From: Gammaproteobacteria bacterium
Lineage (GTDB): Bacteria; Pseudomonadota; Gammaproteobacteria; UBA4575
Assembly: GCA_045106935.1 (NCBI GenBank)
Contig: JBGCFN010000005.1
Span: 17,732 to 81,731 of the forward strand
Direction: 5' to 3'
Length of the DNA: 64,000 bases
Within the stretch, counting starts at the first letter, position 1, and every line of letters starts with the position of its first letter. Below, in pieces: positions 44,188 to 61,008 of the stretch. The notes under the pieces were generated by a model that saw nothing but the letters and a program-made list of their open reading frames with translations, was not told where the DNA came from and made no database searches. Both the position numbers and the translations under genes were made by a program.

Positions 44188-44193
44188 AAACTA

Positions 44194-45390
44194 ATGATCG
44201 TTAGAGATTCTATGAAAGTAATAACATTATCAATTTTAGCGCTAATATCATTTGCAACAGTATCCAATGTGGTGCTTGCGGATGGATGGTTTTATCAAAC
44301 AACTTTTAGTTCTCAACTTGAAGCAGATGATAATAAACGTCTACGAACAGATGACGAGAAAGGAGTGATTGGTGCAAATGCACGAATCGATATTAAACTT
44401 TCTAATGTGACTGAAATTAGTGAAGTATATGTTCGAGGTGCTCTTCGTTCAGTGCGCTATGATGGAAGTGAAGATCGAGGAATAGATACGGATGATCAAT
44501 TATTATATGCAGGAGGTCGCTGGAACGGTGAACGTTCACAGTTCTCAATTGATGGGGAATTTCTTAGGCAGTCATCACAGCTAACAGAGTTAACAGATAC
44601 TGGATTCTTTGATGATGTGGATCGTCGAGTAACTAAGTCAATTGAGCCGCAGTATTCATATATATTATTTGAAGACACACAAGCATTTGTTGGGCTTAAT
44701 TACGAAGAAGTTGATTTTCCAAATAGTATTCCCGTTAATTTGACGGAATATACTGTTGAAGGCGGAAATCTTGGTGTGATTCATACAATTAATGAATTAA
44801 ATTCTGTCACCGCAAGTGTATTTCATTCTCAATATGAAGCAGATACATTCTCTAATGAAGTTGATACAACTGGTGTCAATGTCCGATATGCTAAAACCAT
44901 TAATGAATTATGGGATGCTTATGCGCAAGTGGGATACCGCAAATCAAATTTTAAAAATGTGGTTTCGGGAATTGTTGTGCGTGATGATGATACTGGTGAA
45001 TCTTATGATGTCGGCGCAACACGGCAATCAGAATTATCTACACTAAATGTATCTGCCAGTAATGAATTACAACCTAGTGCATCTGGTGATGTGAATGAAC
45101 GGTTAACGTTAAATTTTGCTTACAATCGATCGTTTAGTGACTATTGGGCAGGATTAATAGATTTTATTTGGCTAAATAATGAATCGGTTAATAATGAGGG
45201 TAATGATAATGACCGTGAATATTGGCAATTTACATTAGGTGCAGATTATCGAATAACACCTGCATGGACAGCCACAGCGCGTCTTCGTCATAGAGAGCAA
45301 AATAGAGATGATATTTCGGGTTCTCGAGCAGAATCTGATGCAGTGATATTAGGTATTCGTTACGCTGGTAATAATAAAAGAATAAAATAG
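44194..45390 (+). CDS. putative outer-membrane beta-barrel protein of the EPS locus
   Basis: Signal peptide, alternating amphipathic strands and a C-terminal aromatic residue pattern. No specific family assignable. Confidence 0.35.
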   Translation: MIVRDSMKVITLSILALISFATVSNVVLADGWFYQTTFSSQLEADDNKRLRTDDEKGVIGANARIDIKLSNVTEISEVYVRGALRSVRYDGSEDRGIDTDDQLLYAGGRWNGERSQFSIDGEFLRQSSQLTELTDTGFFDDVDRRVTKSIEPQYSYILFEDTQAFVGLNYEEVDFPNSIPVNLTEYTVEGGNLGVIHTINELNSVTASVFHSQYEADTFSNEVDTTGVNVRYAKTINELWDAYAQVGYRKSNFKNVVSGIVVRDDDTGESYDVGATRQSELSTLNVSASNELQPSASGDVNERLTLNFAYNRSFSDYWAGLIDFIWLNNESVNNEGNDNDREYWQFTLGADYRITPAWTATARLRHREQNRDDISGSRAESDAVILGIRYAGNNKRIK

Positions 45391-45392
45391 TA

Positions 45393-47165
45393 ATGGATAA
45401 TGCAACTAGTGAGTTTGAAGATGCACTCGAGCCAGAGAAAAGTCTTGGTGACTGGATTCGAGCTGTTAAAAGAAGAAAAGTAGCTGTTGCTGTCACTGCA
45501 AGCATATTACTCATCGCGTCTGCTTTATTGGCTTTCTTGTTACCGGCTAAATATCAGTCGGCGGGGACAATTTTAATTGAGCAGCAGGAAATCCCGCAAG
45601 ATTTTGTTCGGTCGACTATTACGACCTTTGCTGATCAGCGACTTCAAGTGATCAAGCAACGTGTTATGACTTCCACTAATTTGTTTCAAATTATAAACAA
45701 ATTCAATCTCTATCAGGATATGTTGCAAGAAGAGCCGAGAGAGGTTGTTCTTGAAGAGATCAGAGATGCTATTTCGCTTGATTTTATCAGTGCTGATGTG
45801 ATCGACCCACGCAGTGGAAGACCCGTTCAAGCAACTATTGCTTTTAAAGTCTCTTACGAGCATGAATCGCCAGCGTTAGCACATAAAGTTGCCAATGAGA
45901 TTACAGGTTTATTCCTCAATGAGAACATTAAAGAACGCACGCAAAAAGCTCAAGATGCAACAAAATTTTTAGAAGATGAAGCTGATAAATTAGAAGGTGA
46001 GATAAATAAACTTGAGGAAAATTTAGCAGAGTTTAAAACGGGTAACGTAGAGAAGTTACCAGAACTTGTATCCATGAATTTAAACTTAATGGATAGAACA
46101 GATCAAGAGATTAAGCAAATTGATCAGCAGTTACGAACACTTAGGGAAAGACAAATATATTTGCAATCTGAGCTTGCTCAGATGAATCCAAATCAAGCTT
46201 TATTTAGTGAGCAGGGTGAACGTTTGCTCGGTTCAGGTGACCGTTTGAAAATCCTTAAAATAGAGCTTGCACAATTATTGGGGGTATATTCTCCGAATCA
46301 TCCAGATGTATTAAGAACAAAGCGTGAAATATCAGCTTTAGAAAAAGATAGCGGACAAAATAGTAGTGGCTTTAAAGAAATTAATGCTGAATTACAATTG
46401 TTGAGACAACGACTTCAGGAAGCAGAGTTGAAATATTCTAAAAATCATCCTGATGTTAAGTCGCTTAAACGTTCTATTGCAGGTTTAGAAAAGTCACTTA
46501 ACGATTCTGATTTTAATGCAGAATTTCAAGTCAATAGTAGCAATGTATCTAATCCAGCATATTCACAGTTATTAGCTCAATTGGATGCGTCTAAATCTGA
46601 AATTAATAGTCTCAAGATTACGCGTTCATCACTACAAACAAAAATAAAAATGTTGGAGAGAAGGTTAATTGAATCTCCAGAGGTTGAACGCAAGTATAGA
46701 GCATTAGTACGAGACTATGATAATGCTCGAGCAAAATATGCTGATGTCAAAGCTAAGCTTTCTGAAGCAAAAATAGGAGAGTCATTAGAACTAGGGAAGC
46801 AAAGTGAACGATTTACTATAATCGAGCCACCATTGCTGCCTGAACAGCCAGTCAGTCCCAATCGACCTGCTATTTTATTATTAGGAGTTTTATTGAGCGG
46901 CATTACAGCACTAGGCGTTGTACTGCTAAAAGAAAGTTTGGATGATGCAATTTATGACCGTACAACTGTTCTCCAAATGACTGGTTTTATGCCAATTGCT
47001 GTTTTGCCTACTATGTATACTATTGAGGAAGTATCAAAGACTAATAATACAAAGTTATTTTTATTAGGTATGGGTTTAATTGGCACGGCTTGTTTACTTA
47101 CGTTAATTCATATTTTTTATCTTCCACTTGATGTGCTTTTTTATAAAATTCTGAGAAAAATATAA
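45393..47165 (+). CDS. polysaccharide chain-length determinant (Wzz/PCP) protein, PEP-CTERM-locus subfamily
   Basis: N-terminal TM, a long coiled-coil periplasmic region and a C-terminal TM. 590 aa. Confidence 0.65.
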   Translation: MDNATSEFEDALEPEKSLGDWIRAVKRRKVAVAVTASILLIASALLAFLLPAKYQSAGTILIEQQEIPQDFVRSTITTFADQRLQVIKQRVMTSTNLFQIINKFNLYQDMLQEEPREVVLEEIRDAISLDFISADVIDPRSGRPVQATIAFKVSYEHESPALAHKVANEITGLFLNENIKERTQKAQDATKFLEDEADKLEGEINKLEENLAEFKTGNVEKLPELVSMNLNLMDRTDQEIKQIDQQLRTLRERQIYLQSELAQMNPNQALFSEQGERLLGSGDRLKILKIELAQLLGVYSPNHPDVLRTKREISALEKDSGQNSSGFKEINAELQLLRQRLQEAELKYSKNHPDVKSLKRSIAGLEKSLNDSDFNAEFQVNSSNVSNPAYSQLLAQLDASKSEINSLKITRSSLQTKIKMLERRLIESPEVERKYRALVRDYDNARAKYADVKAKLSEAKIGESLELGKQSERFTIIEPPLLPEQPVSPNRPAILLLGVLLSGITALGVVLLKESLDDAIYDRTTVLQMTGFMPIAVLPTMYTIEEVSKTNNTKLFLLGMGLIGTACLLTLIHIFYLPLDVLFYKILRKI

Positions 47166-47167
47166 TT

Positions 47168-47971
47168 GTGGACAAAATTACAAAAGCGCTAGATCTCACC
47201 AGAGCAAAGAGAGACAAGCAGAATTCTGTTTCGCCAATCACCGAAAGAAGTGATGCTGTGCAATTTCCTAGGGCGAATTCTTACGCGATAAAAGAATTTA
47301 GTCCGAATGCTCTAACTTTAGAAAAAAACAGAATTCTCAATAGTGCTAGTCGTGAAGAGATGATTCAACCATATAAAGTGTTGAGAACGCGATTAATGCA
47401 TATCATGCAAGAGAAAGATTGGCGCTCTATTGCTGTGATAAGCCCAGCTAAAGATGAAGGTAAGTCTACTGTAGCGATCAATTTGGCTATTAGTATAGGT
47501 AATAGCCGAAAAGAAAATGCAGTATTGTTAGATTTGGATTTATTAACACCATCTATACATTCTTATTATGGTTATCAGCCTGACGTGGGATTAGATGAGT
47601 ATTTTAAACAAGATAAGCCGCTAAAAGAAATTTTAGTGTCACCAGGTATAAAAGGTTTGGCAATAGCACCATCAATTAAGCCATTGCATGATTCATCTGA
47701 GTATTTGTCAACGACTAAAGGTGCAGATTTAATACGTGAAGCAAATTCAGTATATGATGATTCAATTGTCATTGTTGATTTGCCGCCGATTCTTGTAAGT
47801 GATGATGCTATATCATTTCTACCGCATGTTGATGCTGTGTTATTGGTGATTAGAGAAGGTCAAACTAATAAGCTAGAACTGCAACGGGCCCAAGAGATGC
47901 TTGCTGGCGTAAATATTGCTGGTGTTGTCATTAATGATTCCTTGGAGCCTGCAACATTAGGCTATTACTGA
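47168..47971 (+). CDS. ParA/MinD-like tyrosine-kinase-type ATPase (EpsG-like)
   Basis: Deviant P-loop SPAKDEGKST and a Walker B IVIVDLPP. Confidence 0.6.
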   Translation: MDKITKALDLTRAKRDKQNSVSPITERSDAVQFPRANSYAIKEFSPNALTLEKNRILNSASREEMIQPYKVLRTRLMHIMQEKDWRSIAVISPAKDEGKSTVAINLAISIGNSRKENAVLLDLDLLTPSIHSYYGYQPDVGLDEYFKQDKPLKEILVSPGIKGLAIAPSIKPLHDSSEYLSTTKGADLIREANSVYDDSIVIVDLPPILVSDDAISFLPHVDAVLLVIREGQTNKLELQRAQEMLAGVNIAGVVINDSLEPATLGYY

Positions 47972-48008
47972 TTCAAATTTTAGAGTAGCTGCTTAAATAT
48001 AACTGCCT

Positions 48009-48830
48009 ATGTATAACAGTCATTTTGGATTGAGCGAAAAACCATTCGCATTATCACCAGATCCTGATTTTCTATACTTCACAAGTAGCCATCGTCTAGC
48101 AATGACGATGTTGGAGTATGGTATTCAAAATGAATCTGGATTTACATTAATTAGTGGTGATGTAGGGTGTGGTAAAACCACATTAATTAGATATCTATTG
48201 CGTAGCATTGATAAAGATCATGTGGTTGGCTTAATTAGTAATACACATGAATCATTTGGGGATCTTATTGATTTAGTATTGTTAGCATATGGATTAGATT
48301 ATAAAGATAAAACTAATATTGAAAAATATCATACATTTGAAGATTTCTTATTAGAGCAATATCGCTCAGGTAAGAGTACATTATTAATTGTTGATGAGGC
48401 TCAGAATCTTAGCCCTAAAATGTTAGAAGAACTTAGAGTAATTTCTAATATTAATTCTGGCAAGGATCATGTTTTTCAAATTATCCTATCGGGTCAGCCA
48501 GAAATTAGAGAAACATTAAGATTGCCAGAATTGAAGCAATTTGCTCAGAGAATATCATCTGACTTTCATCTTAAGCCATTAACTCTTGATCAGTTAACAG
48601 AATATATAAAATATCGATTGGAAGTGGCTGGAGCTAAACGCATGCTATTTACCGATAAAGCTATTCGAATGGTATTTAATTTTAGTAAAGGTGTGCCTAG
48701 AGTGGCGAATACATTTTGTGATTTAGCAATGATATATGCATTTGCTGATGGGTTAGACGTTGTGGATTGGAAGACGGTGATGAGTGTAGCTATCGATAAG
48801 AAAAACAGTGGTGCAATTGGAATATTATAA
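48009..48830 (+). CDS. ExeA-like AAA ATPase, PEP-CTERM-system associated type (no peptidoglycan-binding domain)
   Basis: FALSPDPDFLYFTSSHRLAMTMLEYGI plus Walker A SGDVGCGKTT. It is a paralogue of the gspA N-terminal half at 12078. Confidence 0.75.
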   Translation: MYNSHFGLSEKPFALSPDPDFLYFTSSHRLAMTMLEYGIQNESGFTLISGDVGCGKTTLIRYLLRSIDKDHVVGLISNTHESFGDLIDLVLLAYGLDYKDKTNIEKYHTFEDFLLEQYRSGKSTLLIVDEAQNLSPKMLEELRVISNINSGKDHVFQIILSGQPEIRETLRLPELKQFAQRISSDFHLKPLTLDQLTEYIKYRLEVAGAKRMLFTDKAIRMVFNFSKGVPRVANTFCDLAMIYAFADGLDVVDWKTVMSVAIDKKNSGAIGIL

Positions 48831-48846
48831 AGTAATGAGTAATTAA

Positions 48847-50445
48847 ATGAATGCGACAAATGTAACTGGTGAAGTTGGTCAGAAAATAAATGTATGGAGA
48901 TTTACATTACGACAAATTGGCTTAGTTGTTGTTTCATTTATATTATTATATTTTCTTTTTGAGGAGGGAATATTACATGCGATTCAAAAATGGGACTCAC
49001 CCGAATATAGTCACGCATATTTAATTCCTTTCATATCTCTATTTATAATTTGGCAGAATCATTCTGAATTTATCAAGTATAGATTCAGTGGATCATGGCT
49101 GGGAGTACTCATCTTACTGGTCGGTTTATTTTTATTATTGTTGGGAGAGATGAGTACTCTCTATATTATTATAAAATATTCATTGTTGGTCGTTATATTT
49201 GGTTTGGTCTTGTCTCTGACAGGAGTTAAAAGATTTCATTATTTTCTTTTTCCAATCTTTTTATTGTTTTTCACCATACCTTTACCTAACTTCATTTATA
49301 ACAATCTATCAGCATATTTGCAGCTAATTTCATCTAGCATTGGCGTTGAAGTGATTAGATTGTTTGGAATTAGTGTCTTTTTAGAGGGTAATGTCATTGA
49401 TCTTGGAAATTATAAGCTACAGGTAGTAGAGGCTTGTAATGGACTAAGGTATTTATTCCCACTTGTCACATTGGGTGTAATAGCAGCATATTTTTATAAT
49501 GACAGCTTTTGGAAAAAATGTATTGTCGTTATTTCAACGTTACCAATTACCATTCTTATGAATAGTATACGCATAGGTGTTATCGGTATATTAGTAGAGC
49601 ATTGGGGCATTGCTATGGCTGAAGGCTTTCTGCATGATTTTGAAGGCTGGATTATCTTTATGGTGTGTTTTTCAATTTTATTAATTGAGATGTGGCTATT
49701 AACAAAATTGACAACAGGAAGATCGTTGAGAGATGTGTTAAGTATTGAAGTACCCACCAAGCTGAATATGAATAACTTTAATGTGTCTGAAAGACATATT
49801 CCTAAACCGTTTTATGTTTCTGTTTTTATATTGTTATTAATATTGTTTGCACAGTATGCATTACCAGAAAGACGGGAAAATGTACCAGAAAGAAGCCAAT
49901 TCATTGAATTTCCTGTTGATATATCTGGATGGCAGAGTACTCGCAAGTCTATGGAAGCCAAATTCATCAATGCACTTAAATTTGAAGATTATTTGCTCGC
50001 GAATTACTCCAGCAATGCTGGGGCATTAGAATTATACATTGCATATTACGAATCTCAGCGAAAAGGTGAGTCTGCACACTCACCAAGATCATGTCTTCCA
50101 GGTGCTGGCTGGAAAATTACAGATAGAGGTTTGGTTAATATTAGTTATAAAAATCATGTAAATATTGACACGCAAATACCAGTAAGTCGTATGTTGGTTC
50201 AACAAGGTGATAGTAGATACTTAATGTATTACTGGTTTAAGCAACGAAACAGGCATATCACGAATGAATATTTAGTTAAATGGTATTTATTTTTAGATGG
50301 AATAATAAAAAATAGAACTGATGGTGCATTAATTAGAATAATGTTCCCTATTGCACAGCATCAAGATATAAGTACAGCCGATGAAACAGTACAGTTATTC
50401 TTGCAAGAAACATTGCCTATTTTGCCTGAATTTGTACCAGATTAG
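48847..50445 (+). CDS. xrtA: exosortase (XrtA-like) fused to a C-terminal EpsI-family domain
   Basis: Polytopic N-terminal half with the exosortase catalytic motif VVEACNGLRYL and the Arg motif LMNSIRIG. C-terminal soluble domain with SPRSCLPGAGW (EpsI-like). Confidence 0.75.
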   Translation: MNATNVTGEVGQKINVWRFTLRQIGLVVVSFILLYFLFEEGILHAIQKWDSPEYSHAYLIPFISLFIIWQNHSEFIKYRFSGSWLGVLILLVGLFLLLLGEMSTLYIIIKYSLLVVIFGLVLSLTGVKRFHYFLFPIFLLFFTIPLPNFIYNNLSAYLQLISSSIGVEVIRLFGISVFLEGNVIDLGNYKLQVVEACNGLRYLFPLVTLGVIAAYFYNDSFWKKCIVVISTLPITILMNSIRIGVIGILVEHWGIAMAEGFLHDFEGWIIFMVCFSILLIEMWLLTKLTTGRSLRDVLSIEVPTKLNMNNFNVSERHIPKPFYVSVFILLLILFAQYALPERRENVPERSQFIEFPVDISGWQSTRKSMEAKFINALKFEDYLLANYSSNAGALELYIAYYESQRKGESAHSPRSCLPGAGWKITDRGLVNISYKNHVNIDTQIPVSRMLVQQGDSRYLMYYWFKQRNRHITNEYLVKWYLFLDGIIKNRTDGALIRIMFPIAQHQDISTADETVQLFLQETLPILPEFVPD

Positions 50446-50464
50446 CTGTTGATAGAGAATATAT

Positions 50465-52081
50465 ATGCAGTTTTATACAATATTTTTGGTGGCAATGTTC
50501 GCGGCAATTATTTTAATTCCACCACTAACTTATATCTACCAGAAATTAAATATTGTTGATTTACCTGCTGCAAGGAAAGTACATAAAAAACCTATTCCTA
50601 GAGTAGGTGGTATAGCAATTGTTGTTGCAACTATATTTCCAATCATTGCTTGGATTCAGTTGGATGCACCAATATTGGGTGTGTTAATAGGAATTGCGAT
50701 ATTATTTATTTTGGGAATTATTGATGATGCTAGGAATCTATCCTATAAGATTAAATTTATTATTCAAATCCTATCTATTTCTTTAGTGTTTATATATGGG
50801 TTTGTAGATTTGAATGCATCACATTTTGTCGCAAAAGAATTAGTCCCATATGCAGTATTGTTTACAGCCTACTTCTTATTTATTTTAGGTGTAACTAATG
50901 CGATAAATTTGTCTGATGGTTTGGATGGTCTAGCAGGTGGAGAAGCTTTATTGTCCTTTAGTGTGATTGGGTTGCTAGCGTATGAAACGAATAATAGTCT
51001 AATCATTCTTTTAGTATTAGCTATAGTTGGCGCAGTCTTTGGTTTTCTAAGGTTTAATACTTATCCAGCAAAAATATTTATGGGTGATACGGGCAGCTTG
51101 TTTTTGGGGTTTGTCCTAGGCTTGCTTAGCGTTGCTTTGACATATCGTGTTGACAATGCATATGCAAAAATGTTGCCGCTATTGTTGGTGGGACTGCCAG
51201 TGTTAGACACGTTAATGGTAATGATAATTAGATTGTATCATGGAAAATCTCCTTTTAATGCTGACCGAAATCATTTGCATCATCGTCTTTTAGATCATGG
51301 TTTTGCACATTATCAAAGTGTATTAATTATTTATCTTATACAAAGTATATTTGTATTAACTGCGTATTTCATGCGTTATGACACAGAAGTAAATGTGTTA
51401 ATAGCATTTACGATTATTTCAATTTTGGCAATATCGATAAGTTATGCAACTACTAAAGACAATAAGCCAATACTAAGTAATAGTATCGTTAATAAAATTT
51501 TTAATATATCTAGAGACATTGTAAATATTCATACTGAAAAATTGTTTTCTATTCTTGGGGTATTGTTATTGCTGTATACATTAACGGCATCGTTTGCTGT
51601 TGATAAATTCGATAAAGATATATTACTTTTATTATTGGTCATTAGTGTTATAGGTATGATTGGGTTAATTCTGTTAAGAGAAAAGCCTTGTCATTGGATA
51701 GAAAGAGTTGCCATTCATGTGATGATTGTGCTGTCTATATACTTTGGTGTTGGCGTCAATCAAGGAAATATAATGGATGTATTTCAGATTGGCATACTGC
51801 TGGTAAGCGTGGTCATTATTGTTCTGTTATTTTTAGGTGAAGGAAGAAAAAAATTCATTGGTTCGCCATTGGATTTTTTATTAATAGCAACTGCTATTGT
51901 GATACCGAATTTACCAAATTCACCAATAGCTAATCATGGGCTAAGTCTGTTAATACTAAAGTTAGTCGTGCTTTTCTATTGTGTGGAATATGTTTTGTTT
52001 AACGTGACTAGTCATTGGTGGGTAATTCGTTTGACTTTGATAATTGGTGCTTTTGTACCAATTATTTTAAATTATATATAG
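50465..52081 (+). CDS. WecA/MraY-family polyprenyl-phosphate sugar-1-phosphate transferase (GT4) with roughly 200-aa extra C-terminal TM region
   Basis: DDxxN (IIDDARNL), NAINLSDGLDGLAGG and KIFMGDTGSLFLGF motifs. Confidence 0.7.
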   Translation: MQFYTIFLVAMFAAIILIPPLTYIYQKLNIVDLPAARKVHKKPIPRVGGIAIVVATIFPIIAWIQLDAPILGVLIGIAILFILGIIDDARNLSYKIKFIIQILSISLVFIYGFVDLNASHFVAKELVPYAVLFTAYFLFILGVTNAINLSDGLDGLAGGEALLSFSVIGLLAYETNNSLIILLVLAIVGAVFGFLRFNTYPAKIFMGDTGSLFLGFVLGLLSVALTYRVDNAYAKMLPLLLVGLPVLDTLMVMIIRLYHGKSPFNADRNHLHHRLLDHGFAHYQSVLIIYLIQSIFVLTAYFMRYDTEVNVLIAFTIISILAISISYATTKDNKPILSNSIVNKIFNISRDIVNIHTEKLFSILGVLLLLYTLTASFAVDKFDKDILLLLLVISVIGMIGLILLREKPCHWIERVAIHVMIVLSIYFGVGVNQGNIMDVFQIGILLVSVVIIVLLFLGEGRKKFIGSPLDFLLIATAIVIPNLPNSPIANHGLSLLILKLVVLFYCVEYVLFNVTSHWWVIRLTLIIGAFVPIILNYI

Positions 52082-52103
52082 CTAAAATTAATATTTTATT
52101 TCA

Positions 52104-54506
52104 GTGTTACTGAAGGAGTTTGTTGTGAGTAAGTTTTTAATTGTTACATTGTGCGCTGTTTTAGTCATTAGTGGATGTGGTGGAGCTGAGTCAAGGAAAG
52201 AAAAATACATTCAAAGTGGTAATCAACACTATATACAAGATGATTGTAATAAAGCCAAATTAGACTATAAAAATGCACTGCAAATTGATCCAAAAAGTGT
52301 AGATGGGCTTATTGGGTTGGCTAGATGTATGCTAGAAGAGAAAGAGTGGCGTAAAGGATATCAATTGTTAAATGGTGCGTTAGAGCATGACCCTACATCT
52401 GTTGATGCCAAATTGGATTTGGCAAAACTATATTTAATATCAGGTGAAAGTGATAAATCTTATCAATTGATAGAAGAGATATTAACTGCTGAATCTAATA
52501 ATTCTACAGCAATTGCATTAAGAGGTATTTTTCACTTGAAAAATAATACGCTTTCTGCAGCAAGAACTGACTCTGAAATTGCTATTAACCTCGAAGCAGA
52601 TAACTTATCAGCGATTACTTTGTTTTCATCTCTTAAAGTTAAAGATGGAAAGACAGACCAGGCTGCAACGTATATCAGTGATATTGTTAATAATAAAGAA
52701 ATTACTAAGCGTAAAAAGAAAGAGCTACAAGTAATACTAATTGCGTTATACGACCAGCTTAAAGATATTGACAGTGTTATAGATATTTATAAGGATTTAA
52801 TTACACAGTATCCTGATAATTACAGTTATATTTATAGATTATCAGCTATCTATGCTAACAATGATGAAGTTGATCAGGCTGAAGAATTATTATTGACGAG
52901 TATTGATTCTGATGACAGCGATAGTCAGTTAGCCTATATTTCTTTTCTAGATGCTTATAGATCATCTGGTGATGCAACTAAAAAACTAGAAGAGTTTAGT
53001 GCGCAATCTAACAATGGCAAGTTAAAGCTTGCGCTTGGTAAACGCTATCTTGCGAGCAATGAAGAAGAGAAGGCGATATCAGTTTTTACTGACTTGGCCG
53101 GTAAGATAACAATTGTAGAGCATAATGAGGCTAAAAATGAACTAGCATTTTTGCATTTAAAAAATGGTAAATCTGATTTAGCGTTAGAATTAGTCCAGCA
53201 AGTATTATCTGATCAACCAAACAATCTAAGAGCACTAGTCATACGTGGCACATTGGCTATATCTGAGCGTGATGCACCTCAGGCAGTATCGGATTTTAGG
53301 ACGATTTTGCGTGATCAACCTAATAATATTTTTGCTATTAGACAGCTAGCTACAGCATATATATTAAATGACCAAGAAGATTTGGCTAAAGAGTTGTTGC
53401 AGAAAGCTGTCAACATTGATAGTCATGATAAGGCATTAGGCTTGTTGTATGCGCGTCTTCAGGGTAAGGATAATGAATTTGAATCTGCAATTAATACTGT
53501 TAATGAGCTGTTAGAGTCTAATGAAGAAGATCTAGAAACAATTAAAACATTATTTGATTTGCAGATTGCTAACAAAGACTTTGAGGGGGCTAAACATACT
53601 GCTGCAACTATGAAAGCATCGTTGAAAGATAATCCGTTAGGGTATTATCTTTCTGGAGTGTTGTTGCAGAATGAAAACAACAATCTAGCTGCAGAAAAAG
53701 AGTATTTAACTGCACTAGATAAAGAACCGCGTGCAAATGAACCATTATCAGGGTTGGTTAGATTGTATTTGTCTGAAGGTAAGCCTAATAAAGCAATTGA
53801 TCTATTAAATGACATTGTTAGCAAAGATCCTGAGTATTTGGTGCCTTACAATCTTTTAGGTGAGGTAGGTATTAGTATAGAAAATTATTCTTTAGCTGAA
53901 GATAGTTTTAATACTGCAATCAAACTCAATAAACAATGGTGGGTTCCGTATCGAGGTCTTTCCTTAGTACATTCAGCTAAAGGCAATAAAGAAAAATCAA
54001 TTCAAGTGTTACAACGTGGATTTGATAATGGTGTTGGCATTGAACGATTAGGGCTTGAATTAGCGTTAAATCAATATCAGCTAGGTGATAGATCTTCGGC
54101 AATTAATACTTATGAGAAAATTATCTCTGAAATTCCAACGTCCGCATTAGCAAAAAATAATTTATCAATGATTTTGGTTGACGATCAAGCAAATGATCAA
54201 GATATAAATAATGCACTTAATCTTATTGCTGATCTTGAAAAAATTAATGATGCAGCTTCATTAGACACTGTTGGTTGGGTCTACTACCGAGCTGGAAAAT
54301 TTAATCAAGCAATTGAATATTTAGCTAGGGCTGTTGAATTAGCACCGAATGCAGCTGAACTTCATTATCATTTGGGGATGGCCTATGCTGAAGATGGTAA
54401 TAGTCCTGAAAAAGCTAAGCAACATTTGAAGATAGCTGCTGAATCTGAACAAAGTTATGTAGGTAAAGACGTAGCTATTGCTAAGTTTAAACAACTGTCG
54501 CTTTAA
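52104..54506 (+). CDS. PEP-CTERM-system-type TPR-repeat lipoprotein
   Basis: Lipobox LVISGC and about 800 aa of TPR-like repeats. Its context after the exosortase matches the PrsT-like family. Confidence 0.65.
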   Translation: MLLKEFVVSKFLIVTLCAVLVISGCGGAESRKEKYIQSGNQHYIQDDCNKAKLDYKNALQIDPKSVDGLIGLARCMLEEKEWRKGYQLLNGALEHDPTSVDAKLDLAKLYLISGESDKSYQLIEEILTAESNNSTAIALRGIFHLKNNTLSAARTDSEIAINLEADNLSAITLFSSLKVKDGKTDQAATYISDIVNNKEITKRKKKELQVILIALYDQLKDIDSVIDIYKDLITQYPDNYSYIYRLSAIYANNDEVDQAEELLLTSIDSDDSDSQLAYISFLDAYRSSGDATKKLEEFSAQSNNGKLKLALGKRYLASNEEEKAISVFTDLAGKITIVEHNEAKNELAFLHLKNGKSDLALELVQQVLSDQPNNLRALVIRGTLAISERDAPQAVSDFRTILRDQPNNIFAIRQLATAYILNDQEDLAKELLQKAVNIDSHDKALGLLYARLQGKDNEFESAINTVNELLESNEEDLETIKTLFDLQIANKDFEGAKHTAATMKASLKDNPLGYYLSGVLLQNENNNLAAEKEYLTALDKEPRANEPLSGLVRLYLSEGKPNKAIDLLNDIVSKDPEYLVPYNLLGEVGISIENYSLAEDSFNTAIKLNKQWWVPYRGLSLVHSAKGNKEKSIQVLQRGFDNGVGIERLGLELALNQYQLGDRSSAINTYEKIISEIPTSALAKNNLSMILVDDQANDQDINNALNLIADLEKINDAASLDTVGWVYYRAGKFNQAIEYLARAVELAPNAAELHYHLGMAYAEDGNSPEKAKQHLKIAAESEQSYVGKDVAIAKFKQLSL

Positions 54507-54824: not shown

Positions 54825-55664
54825 TTATCTTCTTACTGCAGGACCATTAATAGCTAGTCCATTATTCATGTGTGTATGAAAATACTCTAAGTTTCTATAT
54901 ATTTCGCTCTGAGCTTCAAATGGTGCCGCTCGAACTTGTTTGTTGCATCCGATATATCTTTTATGTAATGGTCCTAATGCCCCCCATTTATTGCGATAAG
55001 TAGGCCATCCTGTCGTTTGACCTAGTGCTGGGCCAAGAGACTCGGTTCGCAATTTTTTTCCAGCATTATCGAAATGACAATGAAAGCATGCGAAATTCAA
55101 TTGCCCACGTCTTGTAAAGTAGAATTTTTTTCCTTTTTGATAGGCTTCTAATGCATTCTCATTAGGTATTCTAATGTTTATAATTTCTCCTCTGCTTTGG
55201 TAGGCAATATATGCAACCAAGCTATTCATCTCCATGCCCATATAATCTAGTTCATCTAATTCATGAGATTGTCTGCATAAATTAATTGCATAGGGCAGAG
55301 TAATCACTGTATTTAGCTTGTCATCCCAACTAGGGTAGTTGTGTTTAATTGAAGGGCCAGAGGGAAAACATTTGCTATAAATTGCACTATTGTTATGCCA
55401 ATACTCTTCACCAGAGTCAATATGTACCTCATATGGAGGGAATTCTTCCAGGGCTTCCCAGTTCTCTCTTGCGGTACTGTCTAATGCATAGACGCCATTA
55501 GCGAAATCTTCGAAAGGCACCTCAGGAAAACGCTTTTTAAAATAACTTTGTATTAAATTAAGATCTTTAATATGTTCAGATGCTGGTGACTCAGCTCTGG
55601 TAATGTCAGTAATTGATAGGGATGCTGCAATTAATAGACAAAATGTAAAAAAAATATTTCGCAT
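54825..55664 (-). CDS. soxA: SoxA-like c-type cytochrome (single CxxCH)
   Basis: Signal peptide, a haem site FACFHCHFDNAG and a SoxA-like C-terminal region (IGCNKQVRAAPF). Adjacent to soxX and soxY. Confidence 0.6.
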   Translation of the reverse strand: MRNIFFTFCLLIAASLSITDITRAESPASEHIKDLNLIQSYFKKRFPEVPFEDFANGVYALDSTARENWEALEEFPPYEVHIDSGEEYWHNNSAIYSKCFPSGPSIKHNYPSWDDKLNTVITLPYAINLCRQSHELDELDYMGMEMNSLVAYIAYQSRGEIINIRIPNENALEAYQKGKKFYFTRRGQLNFACFHCHFDNAGKKLRTESLGPALGQTTGWPTYRNKWGALGPLHKRYIGCNKQVRAAPFEAQSEIYRNLEYFHTHMNNGLAINGPAVRR

Positions 55665-55678
55665 ACTGTTTGAAGCTT

Positions 55679-56131
55679 TTATCCGCCACAGCCACCGATT
55701 GTCACTTTGATGCTTTTAGAAGCAGTAAAGTGTTGATTATCAGATGTAGATACTAGCGCGATAATGTTTGATGATTTGGCCATTTTTACTCGTGTAGAGA
55801 CGTAAGCTTCAATCTTCGGATTGATATCATAGGATGATGTTAAAGGGCTAGGGTTGTTATCGACTAAAATAGATATCATATTGACGTTGTCGATTGTTGT
55901 GTTAACTGTAATTGGAACCACAGCTCAATTTTCAGCAATTTCTGGTGCCTTGATATGGATTGCATCACTGGCATTTGCTGTTTGATTACTAGTCAATTTG
56001 CTGATTAGGTCATCAACATTTGCATGGTCAAATAACTCTTTTTGCCAGTCAGCAAAAGCAAAATTAACTCCACTGAAAAGAGGGAGGGCTAATAAGGTGC
56101 TTGTATTTTTTAGAAATGTTCTTTTAAGCAT
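55679..56131 (-). pseudogene. soxY: soxY interrupted by an in-frame TGA at 55925-55927 (conserved Gly codon position). Could be a nonsense mutation, a read-through or a sequencing error.
   Basis: ORFs 55925..56131 and 55679..55921 are in the same frame. Joined they read ...IHIKAPEIAEN*AVVPITVN...KVTIGGCGG. The Tat-like signal, the APEIAEN(G)AVVP motif and the C-terminal GGCGG are SoxY hallmarks. Confidence 0.6.
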
Positions 56132-56139
56132 AGTAATAC

Positions 56140-56478
56140 CTATAGAGCGTGTATAAAGTCAACGACTTGATCTATTTCTTCTTCTGTTAATATGCGATGT
56201 TTACCAAATGGCGGCATCACTGTAATAGGGTTAAATTGGGTTTCGTCCCAGATTCTTTGTCGTAATAGAGATTTATCTGGATAACGCTGCTTCATGTTTA
56301 TAAGCGCAGGACCAATATTTCCCGGGCTTTCTCCACCCTCTATTGCATGACATGCTAGACAATTACCTTTAGTTCTATCAAATGCTAATTGCTTGCCATC
56401 AGCGTATGAAATTGAGCTTATTGCTGCAAATATGCAGATAATTAAAATGTTACATTTTGTTTTAGCTAGATTGAGCAT
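56140..56478 (-). CDS. soxX: SoxX-like monohaem cytochrome c
   Basis: Signal peptide and GNCLACH haem motif, 112 aa, directly upstream of soxY. Confidence 0.6.
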   Translation of the reverse strand: MLNLAKTKCNILIICIFAAISSISYADGKQLAFDRTKGNCLACHAIEGGESPGNIGPALINMKQRYPDKSLLRQRIWDETQFNPITVMPPFGKHRILTEEEIDQVVDFIHAL

Positions 56479-56713
56479 AATTCCAAGCTAATTGTAAAAA
56501 CTGTCTGGAGGGCTTTAATTTTATTTACTGACAGTATGATAGCGTGACTCTGAACGTCTATCTACTAGTTTGGTGGTATCGGTAGCTGCTGATTGTTTAT
56601 TTAGAGATTTTAGTATTTTATTAAAAATCTCATTGGTCTGCGTACGAATTTTATTTTTCATATTATCCTCAAGACTGTAACGGCAGTCTCAGGAATATGT
56701 TGATGGATGATTA

Positions 56714-59305
56714 CTATTTAGTGTGATATTGATCAGCAATTCTATAATTGAGTTCCCTTAACTTGTTGTTATTTAAGGTAATATTGAGGCTTTCTATAGG
56801 CCTTAGTTTGTCAGAATAATTGACCAATGCAGGTGCGTTTAGGTCTATCTCATTAAAGGCTATAAATATCACTGGATGACCGTGCCATTCATGTGGAATC
56901 GTCCATTGTTCATACATGCTGGCAGTTCTGCCTACGGCGTTCCTAGATAAAATATTATCAACTTGCTTGTCAACGTCGTAAAAACGTAAGGAGCTTGCGA
57001 TTGACCATTTGCTCAAACCAACAATGAGTGGTTTTTGACCGGTTTCATTCTCTAGTTGTTTCTCTAGCATGTCTAATTCGTATGCTGTTTGTTGCCAAAA
57101 ATAATGGTTTGTGACTTGAGTATTTATATTTATTGGTAGCCCTAAAGCTGCGTAGTGGAGTATTGCACCATAAATTAAACCTAGAATGGCTGTCGACAGC
57201 AAAGTTAATTTTGTAAATAACTTCTTGTTTGTAAAATTTGAAGTCGGGCTTAAGGCAAATGATATTAATGGAATGGCAATTAACCAGATTGGTGCAGTCC
57301 AATGGAATCGAGGGTAATGAGTGAAACTAAAATACACATATACCAATAAGGGTATGAATGTAAATATGACAAAAAACTGTTTGTAAGTTTTGATGGTTGA
57401 TTTGTTTTGGATTTTATCCTGCAGTAGAGAAGTTATGTTTCTATACGCATTAATGATGAATAATAATATTAATGGAGAGAGAAGAATCATTAAATGAAGT
57501 AATAAGTAATGAGTCGAAAATTCTATAGTTCGATCCAATCGGCGAGTGGTTTGAAATAAAAATGAGCTCCATTCATTTTGTGCATTCCAATAGAGAGTAG
57601 GTGAAAATATCAATAGAGAAATTACTCCAGCAATATATAAAATAGGTTGCTTCCACCATTGTCTGGTTGCTTGATTAACGCTTATAAAAATAATAATGCT
57701 AATTGCAAACAGCGCGATTGAGTACTTTGAAAGCATTCCGATTCCTATACAAATGCCTAAGCTCAGCCAGGAACCGGCCGACTTTTCGAATGTAATCTTT
57801 GCAATAAAGTATAAACATGCAGCCCATATAGCTATTTGTAGTGCATCAGTTGTCGCCAAAAACCCAGTGACTGCTGCAAATGGAATAACGGAAGTCAGTA
57901 TGAGAGAAATATATGCAGAGGTCTTATCAAAGAGCATTGAGCTGAGACGAAATACAAAATATAAAGTGACTATTCCACTAATATATGAAAAAAATCTCAC
58001 ACCAAATTCATTGTCACCAAATACGCTTGTTGCAAGCCATATCAACCAAGCGACCATAGGTGGATGATCTAAGTAGCCTAAGCTTAAATGCTCTTTATAA
58101 TTCCAGTAATATGCTTCATCAGGTATTAATTCAGTTGTGCCTAAGTATAAAAAGCGCAATATCAACATAAAGCCGGTAATTGCAATAGCTAATACTCGCC
58201 AATTGATAGAGCTATATTTAAAGCTATTAGAAGTATTTGCAGGAAATACAATAAATGAGGCAGCAAAATAGTTTACTAAAGCTGCTGCAATAATGGCGGG
58301 ATAAATAGCAAAACCAGGACTGAAATTTAATAAATTGATCAGAATAGCGAGAACTCCGCCACGGATAGTCAGTGCAATCAAGCCAAAGTAAATATACTTT
58401 ATTGCTTTACTCAGCCAGCTATTAAATGAGTTATGTATGTATTTAAATGACCAAATTGAGTTTAAAATATAGTTGAAGGTAGCAGCAATAAAAAAACTGC
58501 TGATATGAGCGCTAGCAATGCTCCATCCTTTACCTAAGAATAATTGGAAGAATAATGCATCTATTACTACACCTAGAATACCAACCATCATAAAACGGCC
58601 AGTAGTAGAACCGCTAACTCTTCCACCGCTTAATTCAATCAAGCGCTGAAAATATTGAATGAGTTGTTTGCCTGAAAGTTTAGACTCACCAAGCACTCGA
58701 TCTGTAAATACAATAGGTGTTTCAGTGACTCGAAATTTGTCTAAGCCTGATGCAAGTAACTCCAATAGTACTTTATAGCCTCTAGCATTTTGGTCAATAT
58801 CGGAAAAACAGGTTTTTTTACAAGCAAAAAAACCTGATGTAGTATCTTTTACATCAGTCAGGACTCTTGCAGGTAATCCACCAAACCATGATAAGAATCG
58901 TCTGTGTGCTGGCCAGTTAGCGATGCCGCCATTTTTGGTGTAGCGACTACCCACGACGACATCATGAGTACCGTTAATGATTGGCTTGAGTAAATCTGGT
59001 ATGCAATCTATGGGATGGCTTAAGTCAGCATCCATTACTAAGATATACTCAGAATGACTAGTTGCTACTCCATCTAAGATGGCTTGTGTTAAATCTGGAT
59101 GGCCCGTGCGTTGCAGTACTGATATCCAGTTGAAACGCTGGCTCCAAGCATTAATTTTTTCTATCGTATTGTCTTTAGACTGGTCATCGACAAACAAAAT
59201 TTCAAGATCGCAATTCTCAATTTTAAGTTGAGTCAACCCTTCTAGAAGCGGGTCAATATTATCCTGTTCATTCAGCGTGGGAATGACTATTGTAGCACTG
59301 CTCAT
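56714..59305 (-). CDS. three-module glycosylation fusion: N-terminal GT2 polyprenyl-phosphate sugar synthase (DPM1/ArnC/GtrB-like), GtrA-like TM segment, and a large GT-C (PMT/ArnT-like, GT39/83-type) membrane glycosyltransferase
   Basis: IVIPTLNEQDNI...VDDQSKDNT...VMDADLSHP (GT2 DxD). GtrA-like FMMVGILGVVIDALFFQLFL. GT-C signature ELIPDEAYYWNYKEHLSLGYLDHPPMVAWLIW followed by about 10 TMs. 863 aa. Confidence 0.65.
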   Translation of the reverse strand: MSSATIVIPTLNEQDNIDPLLEGLTQLKIENCDLEILFVDDQSKDNTIEKINAWSQRFNWISVLQRTGHPDLTQAILDGVATSHSEYILVMDADLSHPIDCIPDLLKPIINGTHDVVVGSRYTKNGGIANWPAHRRFLSWFGGLPARVLTDVKDTTSGFFACKKTCFSDIDQNARGYKVLLELLASGLDKFRVTETPIVFTDRVLGESKLSGKQLIQYFQRLIELSGGRVSGSTTGRFMMVGILGVVIDALFFQLFLGKGWSIASAHISSFFIAATFNYILNSIWSFKYIHNSFNSWLSKAIKYIYFGLIALTIRGGVLAILINLLNFSPGFAIYPAIIAAALVNYFAASFIVFPANTSNSFKYSSINWRVLAIAITGFMLILRFLYLGTTELIPDEAYYWNYKEHLSLGYLDHPPMVAWLIWLATSVFGDNEFGVRFFSYISGIVTLYFVFRLSSMLFDKTSAYISLILTSVIPFAAVTGFLATTDALQIAIWAACLYFIAKITFEKSAGSWLSLGICIGIGMLSKYSIALFAISIIIFISVNQATRQWWKQPILYIAGVISLLIFSPTLYWNAQNEWSSFLFQTTRRLDRTIEFSTHYLLLHLMILLSPLILLFIINAYRNITSLLQDKIQNKSTIKTYKQFFVIFTFIPLLVYVYFSFTHYPRFHWTAPIWLIAIPLISFALSPTSNFTNKKLFTKLTLLSTAILGLIYGAILHYAALGLPININTQVTNHYFWQQTAYELDMLEKQLENETGQKPLIVGLSKWSIASSLRFYDVDKQVDNILSRNAVGRTASMYEQWTIPHEWHGHPVIFIAFNEIDLNAPALVNYSDKLRPIESLNITLNNNKLRELNYRIADQYHTK

Positions 59306-59334: not shown

Positions 59335-61008
59335 TTATTTGATATAAATATTGGAGAAATGATACCAGAAATCTGAGTTGTATACGTCTGGCTTACGATG
59401 GATCCTGCAATGAAAGCCGATGCTTAGTTCTTCCCATGATTTATGGTCTTTAATCGCTTGCCATAACAAAGTAGCCCTTACTTTTATCAGTAACTGGCGG
59501 TGGTCTGATGATGCTGAATCGTATTCTGATTGAATGTCTCGATGACTCATTATTTTAGTTTTAGCCTGTTGGCTAAAATCAACAGTAAGCCCTTTGTCTA
59601 ATGGGGTAAAGTCAGACGTACATGGGATTATATAAACGACTAAATCATCTTGAAATTGACTTGCTGAAAAATAGTCTTTTGTAGCCTTGAAGAATGACTC
59701 TTCCTTGGGAATGCTTTCACTATCTATGTATTTGCTAATTTCTTCTTTAGTAATGATGGGACGATTTATATTGCTTGATAATGTGGTTATTGAAGTGCCA
59801 ATTGATATTTTATCGGTGATGGTAGGATTAATTGTCATGACGCTAGGGTATAAACGATTCACTTCTTCTTCTATATCTTCTAGTGAATTTTTATTATTAT
59901 TATTTTTTATATACTCATCTCTAGGCGCTGCTTCAGAAAAATAGCCTGCATAGGGCATATATGATTTTGGTTTGCAGATGTCTATATATTTATAGATCGA
60001 ATTTTTAACTGAAAGAAGTCTGTTTTCTGAAATTTTTGATTTCTCATTTTCATCGTAATGATCAAAGCACCAAGGATGGCTAGAAGCACCGCCAGCAAAA
60101 GAGGTGGCTAAGAAATCAATATCTGTTGGAAGCACATAGTGATTGAGTGCTGAGGAGTCTACTGTGATAAGCGCTTGTTTTTTTCCATAGCAAAGATATA
60201 AGCCGCTATCATCCCTGAAATCTCCAGATTTTAAAATTGATATATAAATTTCATTTTCATCTAGTTTGTGAATCTGATTGAAGGCTAGTGGAATAACGTT
60301 AGTGAAGCCTAGATTTCTTAGTGGCGTTTCTGCTGATTTTGTTTTGAATTTGGGAATAACAATTGGTATGTCAGGACGATGCTGTATAAGTTTTATTAGT
60401 GTTTCTTCATGCATGTGATCTGGATGGTTGTGAGAGATATAGACAAGATCTGCATTAAATAGTTGATCGAGTGCGTCGCTGCACGGGGCTGGATCGTGCC
60501 ACCATCCATTTAGAAAACATGGGCCATGTATCCATGGGTCTGTGATGATATTGATTGTGTCGCAATTAAATAGAAGGCTAGCATGCGATAAAAAACGGAT
60601 ATTTAGATCAAGTGCTTGTTGTTGTGAAGTAATATTTTCAGGTAATTGCAAGTGAGTCTTTGGTTGATGGATAACAACCTGGTTGTTTGTCACCTCAAAT
60701 TCAAGTTTTTCTTTAGTAACATTTACATTGTTATATTTGAGTTTTTCTAAATCAAGCTTCCAACCATGAAGTGGGCATTCTGCTAATTTTTCATCTTGAC
60801 ATGGCTGTAATGTGCCACTGGCATGGTCGCATATACGTGAGATTACCCAGTCGACTTGTTTCTCTTTAGATAGTTTAAGAATATGTTTGTCTTGATAGTT
60901 TATTCCTGGTGTTAAGTTATCGAGATCATAATGATAATGGCTATGATTTTTATCATCTATACACGAAAACGATCCAGCTAAACGCAATTTTATTTTTAAT
61001 TTTCCCAT
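59335..61008 (-). CDS. Rieske [2Fe-2S] plus metallo-beta-lactamase-fold protein, CMP-N-acetylneuraminate hydroxylase (CMAH)-like
   Basis: Rieske motif CDHASG-x13-CPLHGWKLDLEKLKY; compare animal CMAH CKHQGG...CTKHNWKLD. It is followed by an MBL-fold region with YISHNHPDHMHEE (HxHxDH). 557 aa. Confidence 0.6.
   Translation of the reverse strand: MGKLKIKLRLAGSFSCIDDKNHSHYHYDLDNLTPGINYQDKHILKLSKEKQVDWVISRICDHASGTLQPCQDEKLAECPLHGWKLDLEKLKYNNVNVTKEKLEFEVTNNQVVIHQPKTHLQLPENITSQQQALDLNIRFLSHASLLFNCDTINIITDPWIHGPCFLNGWWHDPAPCSDALDQLFNADLVYISHNHPDHMHEETLIKLIQHRPDIPIVIPKFKTKSAETPLRNLGFTNVIPLAFNQIHKLDENEIYISILKSGDFRDDSGLYLCYGKKQALITVDSSALNHYVLPTDIDFLATSFAGGASSHPWCFDHYDENEKSKISENRLLSVKNSIYKYIDICKPKSYMPYAGYFSEAAPRDEYIKNNNNKNSLEDIEEEVNRLYPSVMTINPTITDKISIGTSITTLSSNINRPIITKEEISKYIDSESIPKEESFFKATKDYFSASQFQDDLVVYIIPCTSDFTPLDKGLTVDFSQQAKTKIMSHRDIQSEYDSASSDHRQLLIKVRATLLWQAIKDHKSWEELSIGFHCRIHRKPDVYNSDFWYHFSNIYIK

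Follow-up and report, generated by a model that had tools for sequence, protein, structure and literature searches.

The fused gene and its product

The window analysed here is a 64,000-nt stretch of contig JBGCFN010000005.1 (assembly GCA_045106935.1, positions 17,732 to 81,731) of an uncultured gammaproteobacterium. The gene under study occupies positions 56714..59305 of the window on the minus strand, with its stop codon at 56714-56716. The list of open reading frames (ORFs) and the translation of the window gave an uninterrupted frame of 863 codons with an ATG start. Its product, a putative fused polyprenyl-phosphate-hexose synthase and GT-C transferase, is called the fusion protein below. 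NCBI entry P0001, whose source is a gammaproteobacterial metagenome-assembled genome (MAG), is 100% identical to it.

As shown by Pfam searches, the fusion protein carries three domains that do not overlap one another: Glycos_transf_2 at residues 5-163 (96.4 bits against a gathering cutoff of 23.3, E 2.4e-27), GtrA_DPMS_TM at residues 237-354 (PF04138, currently named GtrA/DPMS transmembrane domain; 57.7 bits against 26.1, E 1.7e-15, covering profile positions 1-117 of 117) and PMT_2 at residues 413-573 (140.4 bits against 26.1, E 7.5e-41). All matches lay far above the gathering scores. A preliminary description of this DNA had proposed that a family 2 glycosyltransferase (GT2), a GtrA-like membrane segment and a GT-C enzyme are joined in a single 863-residue polypeptide, and this proposal was borne out. 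The GT2, GtrA and PMT_2 domains named there were matched; PF02366, also named there, was not, and neither PF02366 nor a MIR domain was found in the fusion protein at E<=0.1.

An AlphaFold 2 (AF2) model of the protein (predicted local distance difference test, pLDDT, 80.4; predicted template modelling score, pTM, 0.82) placed the parts in the order GT2 domain, four transmembrane (TM) helices, linker, 11 GT-C TM helices and C-terminal alpha/beta domain. The DPMS-like GT-A/GT2 catalytic domain with its interface helices comprises residues 1-230 (58616..59305, minus strand, as for all parts of the gene), and its DXD motif, D92-A-D94, is encoded at 59024-59032. The four-helix GtrA/DPMS-type TM domain follows at residues 231-356 (58238..58615), as delimited by PF04138, by the profile alignment to the dolichyl-phosphate mannose synthase of Pyrococcus furiosus (PfDPMS) and by the AF2 helices H232-258, H263-286, H294-325 and H330-353. 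A short linker of low confidence between the two enzymes (residues 357-364, 58214..58237; pLDDT <50 at residues 358-362) leads to the GT-C membrane module of about 11 TM helices (residues 365-725, 57131..58213), which contains the motif P395-D-E397-A-Y-Y-W401 (58103-58123), the stretch D413-H-P-P and D487 (57845-57847). The C-terminal alpha/beta domain, delimited by AF2 secondary structure, comprises residues 726-863 (56717..57130).

The topology prediction proposed as a check in the preliminary description gave a coherent picture, with the GT2 domain inside, 4 + 11 TM helices and the GT-C loop outside. No signal peptide was found on the GT2 domain. In this model the GT2 domain would be cytoplasmic, and the first GT-C loop, which bears E397, and the C-terminal domain would be periplasmic. 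The linker is predicted to be cytoplasmic because an even number of TM helices precedes it, and the C-terminal domain to be periplasmic because the TM count of the GT-C module is odd. The E397 loop would thus lie on the periplasmic side, as the first loop of all GT-C enzymes does. The fact that the DPMS-type domain has an even number of helices makes such a fusion geometrically possible.

To see whether the fusion is real, ORFs were called anew in 86 fetched loci. A single ORF (median 880 aa) was present in 84 of them, including isolate genomes of Nitrosomonas, Nitrosospira, Nitrosovibrio, Rhizobium, Ancylobacter, Labrys and Desulfoprunum; the two others were L055, in which the contig end cuts the gene, and L070. 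A frameshift, mis-assembly or read-through origin was ruled out by this result; of these, the preliminary description had named a frameshift as a sign of an artificial fusion. The single ORF across independent loci, together with the conserved catalytic residues of both halves described below, indicates that the fusion is not an artefact.

Synthase, membrane domain and transferase

In a sequence search of the PDB, residues 4-311 matched PfDPMS with E 3.6e-50. A profile of 40 homologues (positions 2-347) aligned to residues 23-365 of the PfDPMS chain with E 2.8e-68, through the catalytic domain and all four TM helices. ArnC (E 4.5e-10) and GtrB trailed PfDPMS in the sequence search, and the GtrB structure 5ekp was matched over the catalytic domain only. 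PfDPMS is the prototype of type-III DPMS, in which the catalytic domain is joined to a GtrA-like TM domain (PMC5526996; PMC12992685). Judged from these alignments, the N-terminal half (residues 1-356) is a complete type-III DPMS-like synthase and thus one known type of enzyme. The preliminary description had counted three separate proteins fused into one. Three domains do stand in one chain; the TM segment, however, is no independent third protein spliced in. Because GT2 plus TM is already the DPMS architecture solved for PfDPMS, the novelty lies in the joining of synthase and GT-C enzyme, not in three proteins becoming one.

In PfDPMS, guanine is bound by D39, the metal and diphosphate by D91, mannose by D89, H94, R117 and K178, and the lipid phosphate by R117, R131 and S135, and the A-loop contributes E12, R202 and K208 (PMC5526996, Gandini et al.). 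Ligand residues were transferred to the fusion protein by pairwise alignment: E12, D39, L69, D89, D91, Q93, H94, R117, R131, S135, F177, K178, R202 and K208 of PfDPMS correspond to E13, D41, L72, D92, D94, S96, H97, R121, R135, S139, Y177, K178, R203 and K209, respectively. Among the donor, metal and acceptor-phosphate residues, 13 of 14 are conserved, the change of Q93 to Ser being the only real one. All 14 mapped positions were invariant in the 40 homologues and near-universal in a second set of 82 full-length homologues, in which residue conservation was counted; R121, R135, S139, R203 and K209 were present in 81-82 of the 82. A GT-A fold with the DAD (DXD) motif and the nucleotide-binding Asp is present, and the best inference from these residues is a metal-dependent inverting synthase that yields polyprenyl-phosphate-beta-hexose. 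Its donor is most likely GDP-mannose, and the sugar mannose.

The GT-C nature of the C-terminal half, likewise claimed at the outset, was supported both by the PMT_2 match, which places it in the ArnT/PMT superfamily, and by a GT-C fold composed of a multi-TM core and a C-terminal periplasmic domain. Profile searches of PDB sequences found ArnT of Cupriavidus metallidurans as the sole GT-C enzyme (E 5e-6 and 1.5e-5) and no PMT chain at E<=10. In fold matches Pmt4 and Pmt1 ranked below ArnT and ALG12. Of the earlier wording, PMT/ArnT-like, the ArnT part holds, but a close relation to protein O-mannosyltransferases does not, as ArnT came ahead of any PMT by every method. Assignment as an ArnT orthologue was rejected, the NCBIfam model NF009784 giving 42 bits against a cutoff of 567, and assignment to PMT/GT39 proper was rejected on the search results above. 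By its sequence the GT-C half falls within the ArnT/PMT_2 superfamily but outside both ArnT and PMT; 'glycosyltransferase family 39 protein', its name in databases, is generic.

The motif P-D396-E397-A-Y-Y-W lies directly after the first GT-C helix. The catalytic D158 of ArnT aligns with D487, and E84-K85-P-P of ArnT aligns with D413-H414-P-P, so that the undecaprenyl-phosphate-binding K85 falls on H414. E397, Y399, Y400, W401, D413, H414, P415, P416 and D487 were found in 82/82 homologues, and D396 was variable (D/E/Q/H). R588 (64/82) lies within 2-3 positions of ArnT R270 in a weak alignment; in ArnT, R270 and Y345 bind undecaprenyl phosphate together with K85. The C-terminal domain (last 138 residues) was the least conserved part of the protein, with a mean identity of 0.33 against 0.42-0.49 in the other modules. 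It is possible that this domain serves in acceptor recognition.

The GtrA domain of the fusion protein is internal, flanked by the GT2 and GT-C modules, and not a free-standing protein of about 120-150 aa. Its buried polar residues are D249, S270, N278, R315 and N345, of which D249 was conserved in 77, S270 in 72, R315 in 73 and N345 in 61 of the 82 sequences; among the 40 homologues R315 was present in 40/40 and N345 in 35/40. The preliminary description had called this segment a GtrA-like flippase. The GtrA domain itself was confirmed; its flippase role is only hypothetical (PMC12992685). In a 2026 crystal study, the TM domain of PfDPMS was proposed to hold Dol-P-Man head-down in a polar pocket of N248, N277 and R341 with F338 as a gate, and may flip it (PMC12992685). 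In GtcA, a bona fide GtrA protein, an Arg in TM3 (R95) and an Asn in TM4 (N132) are essential (PMC7389260). R315 and N345 of the fusion protein lie on the analogous helices TM3 and TM4, a correspondence of helix position only. A sub-clade of full-length fusions at 47-49% identity (P0050-P0054) had no detectable Pfam GtrA match; in a few of its members N278 and N345 are replaced, and D249 and R315 are invariant.

The family and its genomic neighbourhood

The preliminary description had presented the architecture as unusual, which proved incorrect: in the databases, hundreds of species have it. Down to an identity of 41%, almost all of the top 120 database homologues share the three-domain layout and a length of 855-917 aa. 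When one genome of each species was scanned, at least 592 relatives came up, and the best 80 of these span the whole query. Carriers include uncultured sulfur-oxidising Gammaproteobacteria/Thiotrichales (the lineage of the window), Nitrosomonas, Nitrosospira, Nitrosovibrio, Nitrospira, Rhizobium, Pararhizobium, Ancylobacter, Labrys, Geminicoccus, Desulfobulbaceae/Desulfocapsaceae, Synergistales, Myxococcota and Planctomycetota. The set of 82 homologues was drawn from Gammaproteobacteria, Nitrosomonadaceae, Nitrospira, Rhizobiales, Desulfobulbaceae, Synergistales, Myxococcota and Planctomycetota, and purifying selection on all modules was evident across at least six phyla. The automatic names are usually 'glycosyltransferase family 39 protein' or 'dolichol-phosphate mannosyltransferase'. 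The gene of the window is an ordinary member of a large, auto-annotated and uncharacterised family. No paper describing or testing a fusion of synthase, GtrA-type TM domain and GT-C enzyme was found in the open-access literature, an absence that is not proof.

The GT-C module alone (residues 360-863) was searched against 1.84 billion cluster representatives, of which 613 matched at E<=1e-30, and the best 150 of these 613 were sorted by the start of the match. Three forms were distinguished: the triple fusion GT2 + TM + GT-C (47/150, median 884 aa), a GT-C enzyme with an N-terminal extension of about 147 aa (TM + GT-C; 71/150, median 653 aa) and GT-C enzymes that stood alone or were truncated (32/150, median 522 aa). 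The extension of the second form aligns from residues ~232-247 of the fusion protein onward, and in several such proteins Pfam confirmed GtrA_DPMS_TM plus PMT_2 and no GT2. Among them, P0122 shows the form to be genuine: its gene is internal to a contig of 224 kb, with no GT2 gene adjoining. P0056 (632 aa, TM + GT-C) was considered as a split form in the same lineage and rejected, as a contig end cuts its gene. A GtrA-type domain is thus found joined to the synthase, as in archaeal DPMS, to the transferase, or to both. The fact that this GT-C family is also fused to the TM domain alone suggests a functional tie of the TM domain with the transferase in addition to that with the synthase. Such a pattern would be expected if the GtrA-type domain mediated the step between the two enzymes, by translocation or by hand-over; this comparative evidence falls short of proof.

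In the window, a same-strand gene for a CMAH-like protein of 557 aa (59335-61008, minus strand) precedes the fusion gene by 29 nt. The CMAH-like protein gave a metallo-beta-lactamase-fold match above threshold and a Rieske match of 17.5 bits, below the cutoff of 20.3; no NCBIfam family was found for it. Further upstream on the same strand are genes for a 'surface carbohydrate biosynthesis protein', a PseF-like cytidylyltransferase and a methyltransferase. The preliminary description had placed the fusion gene last in a CMAH-like operon. Its being the last gene is unsupported, because soxX, soxY and soxA follow on the same strand after a gap of 235 nt in which no terminator was recognisable. 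The island, moreover, is variable. No promoter marking an end of the operon could be defined either, promoter-like matches being fewer than in shuffled sequence. Among 13 related gammaproteobacterial loci, the CMAH-like gene was directly upstream in 6, and the whole island was absent in 4. In a relative with 78% identity (L001) the fusion gene is kept and both the CMAH-like gene and the sox genes are missing; in four with 54-57% identity (L004-6, L013) the whole nonulosonic-acid island is absent and the fusion gene stands at the same place. The CMAH-like gene was variable even among close relatives that retain the rest of the nonulosonic-acid island. Since close relatives without the island keep the fusion gene, its adjacency to the CMAH-like and nonulosonic-acid genes is positional only, an accident of a variable genomic island, and a functional tie to these genes was rejected as a general claim. 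In Nitrosomonas the fusion gene follows fabG-acpP-fabF-mltG, and Nitrosospira, Rhizobiales, Desulfobulbaceae and others have unrelated neighbours. As no neighbour is universal, the fusion gene appears to be a self-sufficient, autonomous unit.

An exosortase-type exopolysaccharide (EPS) locus on the plus strand (43639-54506) converges on the sox and fusion genes. It encodes an export protein, an unknown product of 398 aa, a chain-length determinant, a tyrosine autokinase, a PEP-CTERM-system ATPase, XrtD (a VPLPA-CTERM-specific exosortase with a fused EpsI domain, 562 bits), a WecA-like transferase of 538 aa and a PrsT-like tetratricopeptide-repeat (TPR) lipoprotein. Immediately upstream of it, also on the plus strand, lies the gene of a 949-aa GGDEF-EAL protein of cyclic di-GMP turnover (40488-43337), plausibly a regulator of the EPS locus. 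A motif scan found PEP-CTERM-like ORFs near the fusion gene in 6/86 loci, mostly of one lineage, so that a general association with PEP-CTERM proteins or exosortase was unsupported.

Two other kinds of neighbour were seen in the related loci. A ceramide cluster (fatty acyl-AMP ligase, short-chain dehydrogenase/reductase (SDR), a dedicated acyl carrier protein (ACP) and serine palmitoyltransferase) immediately precedes the fusion gene in L004-6 and L013 (L004:5740-9940), its serine palmitoyltransferase matching NF047599 with 588 bits against a cutoff of 500. In L001 it is found just beyond the inserted sugar island (L001:1-2257), and in the window its position would be beyond 64000. In four Nitrosomonas species (L017, L027, L031, L054) it is two genes away in another arrangement and is the same as the documented ceramide cluster aasR-cerR-acpR-spt of N. 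eutropha (PMC9386255, PMC11324152); the second of these papers also mentions two glycosyltransferases for bacterial glycosphingolipids. Near the ceramide cluster of L004 there were also a GNAT-like gene of 363 aa and a fatty-acid hydroxylase gene. The second kind of neighbour, an OmpR-type regulator and/or a HAMP histidine kinase, adjoins the fusion gene in 11 loci of at least five phyla (L029, L048, L050, L052, L059, L063, L069, L077, L079, L080, L085), with both genes in 8 of the 11. These two-component genes were nearest to heavy-metal CopRS/CzcRS-type families, below the cutoffs, and give a weak hint of a stress-regulated envelope modification in those organisms.

In the window (54825-56478, minus strand) and in most relatives (L003-L013 and L087), though not in L001, the sox cluster, followed by an unannotated gene of ~105 aa, separates the fusion gene from the exosortase locus. 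No separate soxZ gene was evident at the cluster. The soxY gene of the window (55679-56131, minus strand) contains an in-frame TGA at 55925-55927 (…APEIAEN*AVVPITVN), where 11/11 related loci encode Gly (AENGAVVP); joined, the two resulting ORFs (68 and 80 aa) amount to one normal SoxY of 150 aa. A pseudogene, a consensus error of the MAG and a single GGA>TGA change are possible explanations. The 235-nt gap between soxX and the fusion gene contains an ORF of 46 aa (MKNKIRTQTNEIF…; 56521-56661, minus strand) with a GAGGA ribosome-binding site. Conservation of this ORF is improbable, given a gap of only ~54-125 nt in relatives.

Proposed function and comparison with known systems

A self-contained module for polyprenyl-phosphate-sugar-dependent glycosylation, as the preliminary description had suggested, is the most economical reading of three domains in one chain with intact catalytic residues. 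We consider it probable that a polyprenyl-phosphate-hexose is made inside, passed across the membrane and transferred to an acceptor at the periplasmic face. The GT2 domain at the cytoplasmic face would transfer a hexose, most likely mannose from GDP-mannose, to polyprenyl phosphate, as PfDPMS does, giving beta-linked polyprenyl-phosphate-mannose; fold and ligand residues are in place for this step, and the identity of the sugar is our deduction. The lipid-linked sugar would then reach the periplasmic leaflet, and the four-helix GtrA/DPMS-type domain is the obvious candidate for its translocation or hand-over. Finally, the ArnT-like GT-C enzyme may glycosylate an acceptor at the periplasmic face, leaving an alpha-linked sugar if it is inverting like other GT-C enzymes. 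For this enzyme, too, fold and catalytic residues are in place, and its chemistry and acceptor are deduced.

Several points weigh against this reading or parts of it. In place of the metal-binding Q93 of PfDPMS the whole family has Ser (S96), the guanine-reading Asp is replaced by Gly in 7/82 members, and sugar specificity is unreliable to read from sequence. The polar pocket N248/N277/R341 and the gate F338 are not conserved: D249/N278/N345 and A342 stand at these positions, and an Arg is found on TM3 (R315) instead. As this signature differs, the flipping mechanism proposed for PfDPMS is not simply transferable. A role as hub or anchor, and not as flippase, has also been argued for GtrA proteins. 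With 15% identity and a profile E of ~1e-5, the GT-C half is only remotely similar to ArnT, which makes the acceptor class a guess. The neighbourhoods hint in conflicting directions (ceramide cluster, exosortase locus, two-component systems), and no biochemical or genetic study of any family member was found in the open-access literature.

With regard to the acceptor, an envelope glycolipid (lipid A, the lipopolysaccharide (LPS) core or another outer-leaflet lipid) is our leading guess, a tentative one, because ArnT is the nearest solved relative and two-component neighbours recur. We rank it ahead of exported proteins, polysaccharide side chains and sphingolipids, in that order. A bolder form of the same scheme, which is possible though doubtful, is an autonomous 'make-flip-use' machine whose own GtrA/DPMS-type domain (D249/R315/N345) would move polyprenyl-phosphate-mannose without a separate flippase, the acceptor possibly being an envelope lipid other than LPS, e.g. 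a bacterial sphingolipid. Crystallographic data suggest that the homologous TM domain of PfDPMS can hold flipped Dol-P-Man (PMC12992685).

Exported proteins come second as candidates. The fusion protein might be a protein O-mannosyltransferase with a built-in donor synthase, acting on Ser/Thr of exported proteins like actinobacterial Ppm1 + Pmt, with exosortase (VPLPA/PEP-CTERM) substrates near XrtD as possible targets. We regard this as unlikely, since every method ranked ArnT above any PMT, the PF02366 and MIR domains are missing, PEP-CTERM-like ORFs are confined to the few loci given above and the exosortase link is absent outside the gammaproteobacterial lineage.

Somewhat less likely still is a periplasmic side-chain decoration of exopolysaccharide, capsule or O-antigen, the target perhaps being the polymer of the nonulosonic-acid/CMAH-like genes or of the exosortase-linked EPS locus. 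The fusion gene does follow the CMAH-like gene closely, on the same strand as the genes of the PseF-like cytidylyltransferase and the 'surface carbohydrate biosynthesis protein', and the logic of GT2 + GtrA + GT-C is that of GtrABC (PMC11127046). However, the island varies as described, and distant homologues have housekeeping genes, fabG-acpP-fabF-mltG for example, around them. The GT-C enzymes of Gtr systems are hypervariable and specific to a serotype, whereas the GT-C module here is conserved across phyla.

The glycosylation in the periplasm of a bacterial sphingolipid, on the ceramide or phospho-ceramide head group made by the neighbouring spt cluster, appears improbable. A lipid acceptor is mechanistically natural for an ArnT-like enzyme, and the spt cluster is near the gene in the Nitrosomonas and gammaproteobacterial loci listed above, an intriguing recurrence in two classes. 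But most loci (Nitrosospira, Rhizobiales, Desulfobulbaceae, Synergistales and most Nitrosomonas) have no spt cluster within 8 kb. The fusion also occurs in groups not known for sphingolipids, and the bacterial glycosphingolipid glycosyltransferases so far known are cytoplasmic. Finally, although the window comes from a MAG and the TGA in soxY could be an assembly error, the chance that the fusion is an artefact, or its GT-C half a degenerate, non-catalytic membrane anchor, is negligible given the single ORF in isolates and the universally conserved catalytic residues of both halves.

Which protein carries Dol-P-Man and undecaprenyl-phosphate-linked monosaccharides across membranes is a decades-old question, and in bacteria the GtrA family are the usual suspects. 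A fusion of consecutive pathway enzymes is by itself not astonishing to a specialist. With the synthase on one side, the GT-C enzyme on the other and only a TM domain between them, however, this protein offers a compact minimal test system for the flipping of lipid-linked sugars, and its TM + GT-C sister forms open the question to comparative genetics. If the 'make-flip-use' reading were true, the coexisting GT2 + TM + GT-C, TM + GT-C and GT-C forms would be a Rosetta stone identifying GtrA-type domains as translocators of monosaccharide-phosphate-polyprenols. Since nitrifiers, rhizobia and sulfate reducers in culture carry the family, environmentally important bacteria probably have an envelope modification that has gone unrecognised.

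Among known systems, PfDPMS (PDB 5mlz, 5mm0, 5mm1, 9ep0) is the closest to the synthase half, with 29-30% identity over ~350 residues; its single chain, too, has a GT2 domain and interface helices, followed by a four-helix GtrA-like TM domain at the C-terminus. That chain stops after the TM domain, whereas the fusion protein continues with a GT-C enzyme of 500 residues, and the lipid is dolichyl phosphate in PfDPMS and presumably a bacterial polyprenyl phosphate here. MprF, which combines lysyl-phosphatidylglycerol synthase and flippase (cited in PMC12992685), is an earlier example of a lipid-modifying synthase joined to the membrane domain by which its product is translocated; its folds and chemistry are unrelated, and no third, consuming enzyme is present in its chain. 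Ppm1 + Pmt and eukaryotic DPM1-3 + PMT1/2 follow the same order, a DPM1-like GT2 enzyme that makes polyprenyl-phosphate-mannose and then a GT39 GT-C enzyme with an acidic motif in the first loop. Ppm1 and Pmt are, however, separate proteins, and PMTs scored below ArnT against the fusion protein, which is without the MIR domain. The fusion partner of Ppm1 in Mycobacterium tuberculosis is an Lnt-like domain and not a GT-C enzyme.

The Arn system, which modifies lipid A with aminoarabinose, distributes over three or four separate proteins (ArnC, ArnE-ArnF, ArnT) what is here in one. Its synthase is of the ArnC type and that of the fusion protein of the DPMS type (E 3.6e-50 for PfDPMS vs 4.5e-10 for ArnC). 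ArnT of C. metallidurans (PDB 5ezm/5f15) has the phosphate-binding K85 where H414 stands here, and it has 13 TM helices, compared with ~11 in the GT-C model of the fusion protein. Neither 4-amino-4-deoxy-L-arabinose (Ara4N) nor lipid A is established as sugar or acceptor of the fusion protein. GtrB has two C-terminal TM helices and no GtrA-type domain. The component list of GtrA/GtrB/GtrC and of the Gram-positive CsbB/GtcA/YfhO-type systems is nevertheless the same, a GT2 synthase, a four-TM protein of the GtrA family and a GT-C enzyme, encoded there by separate genes (PMC11127046, PMC7389260). In the fusion protein all three functions of a Gtr/Arn-type system, the polyprenyl-phosphate-sugar synthase, the GtrA-type component and the GT-C enzyme, are represented in one chain.

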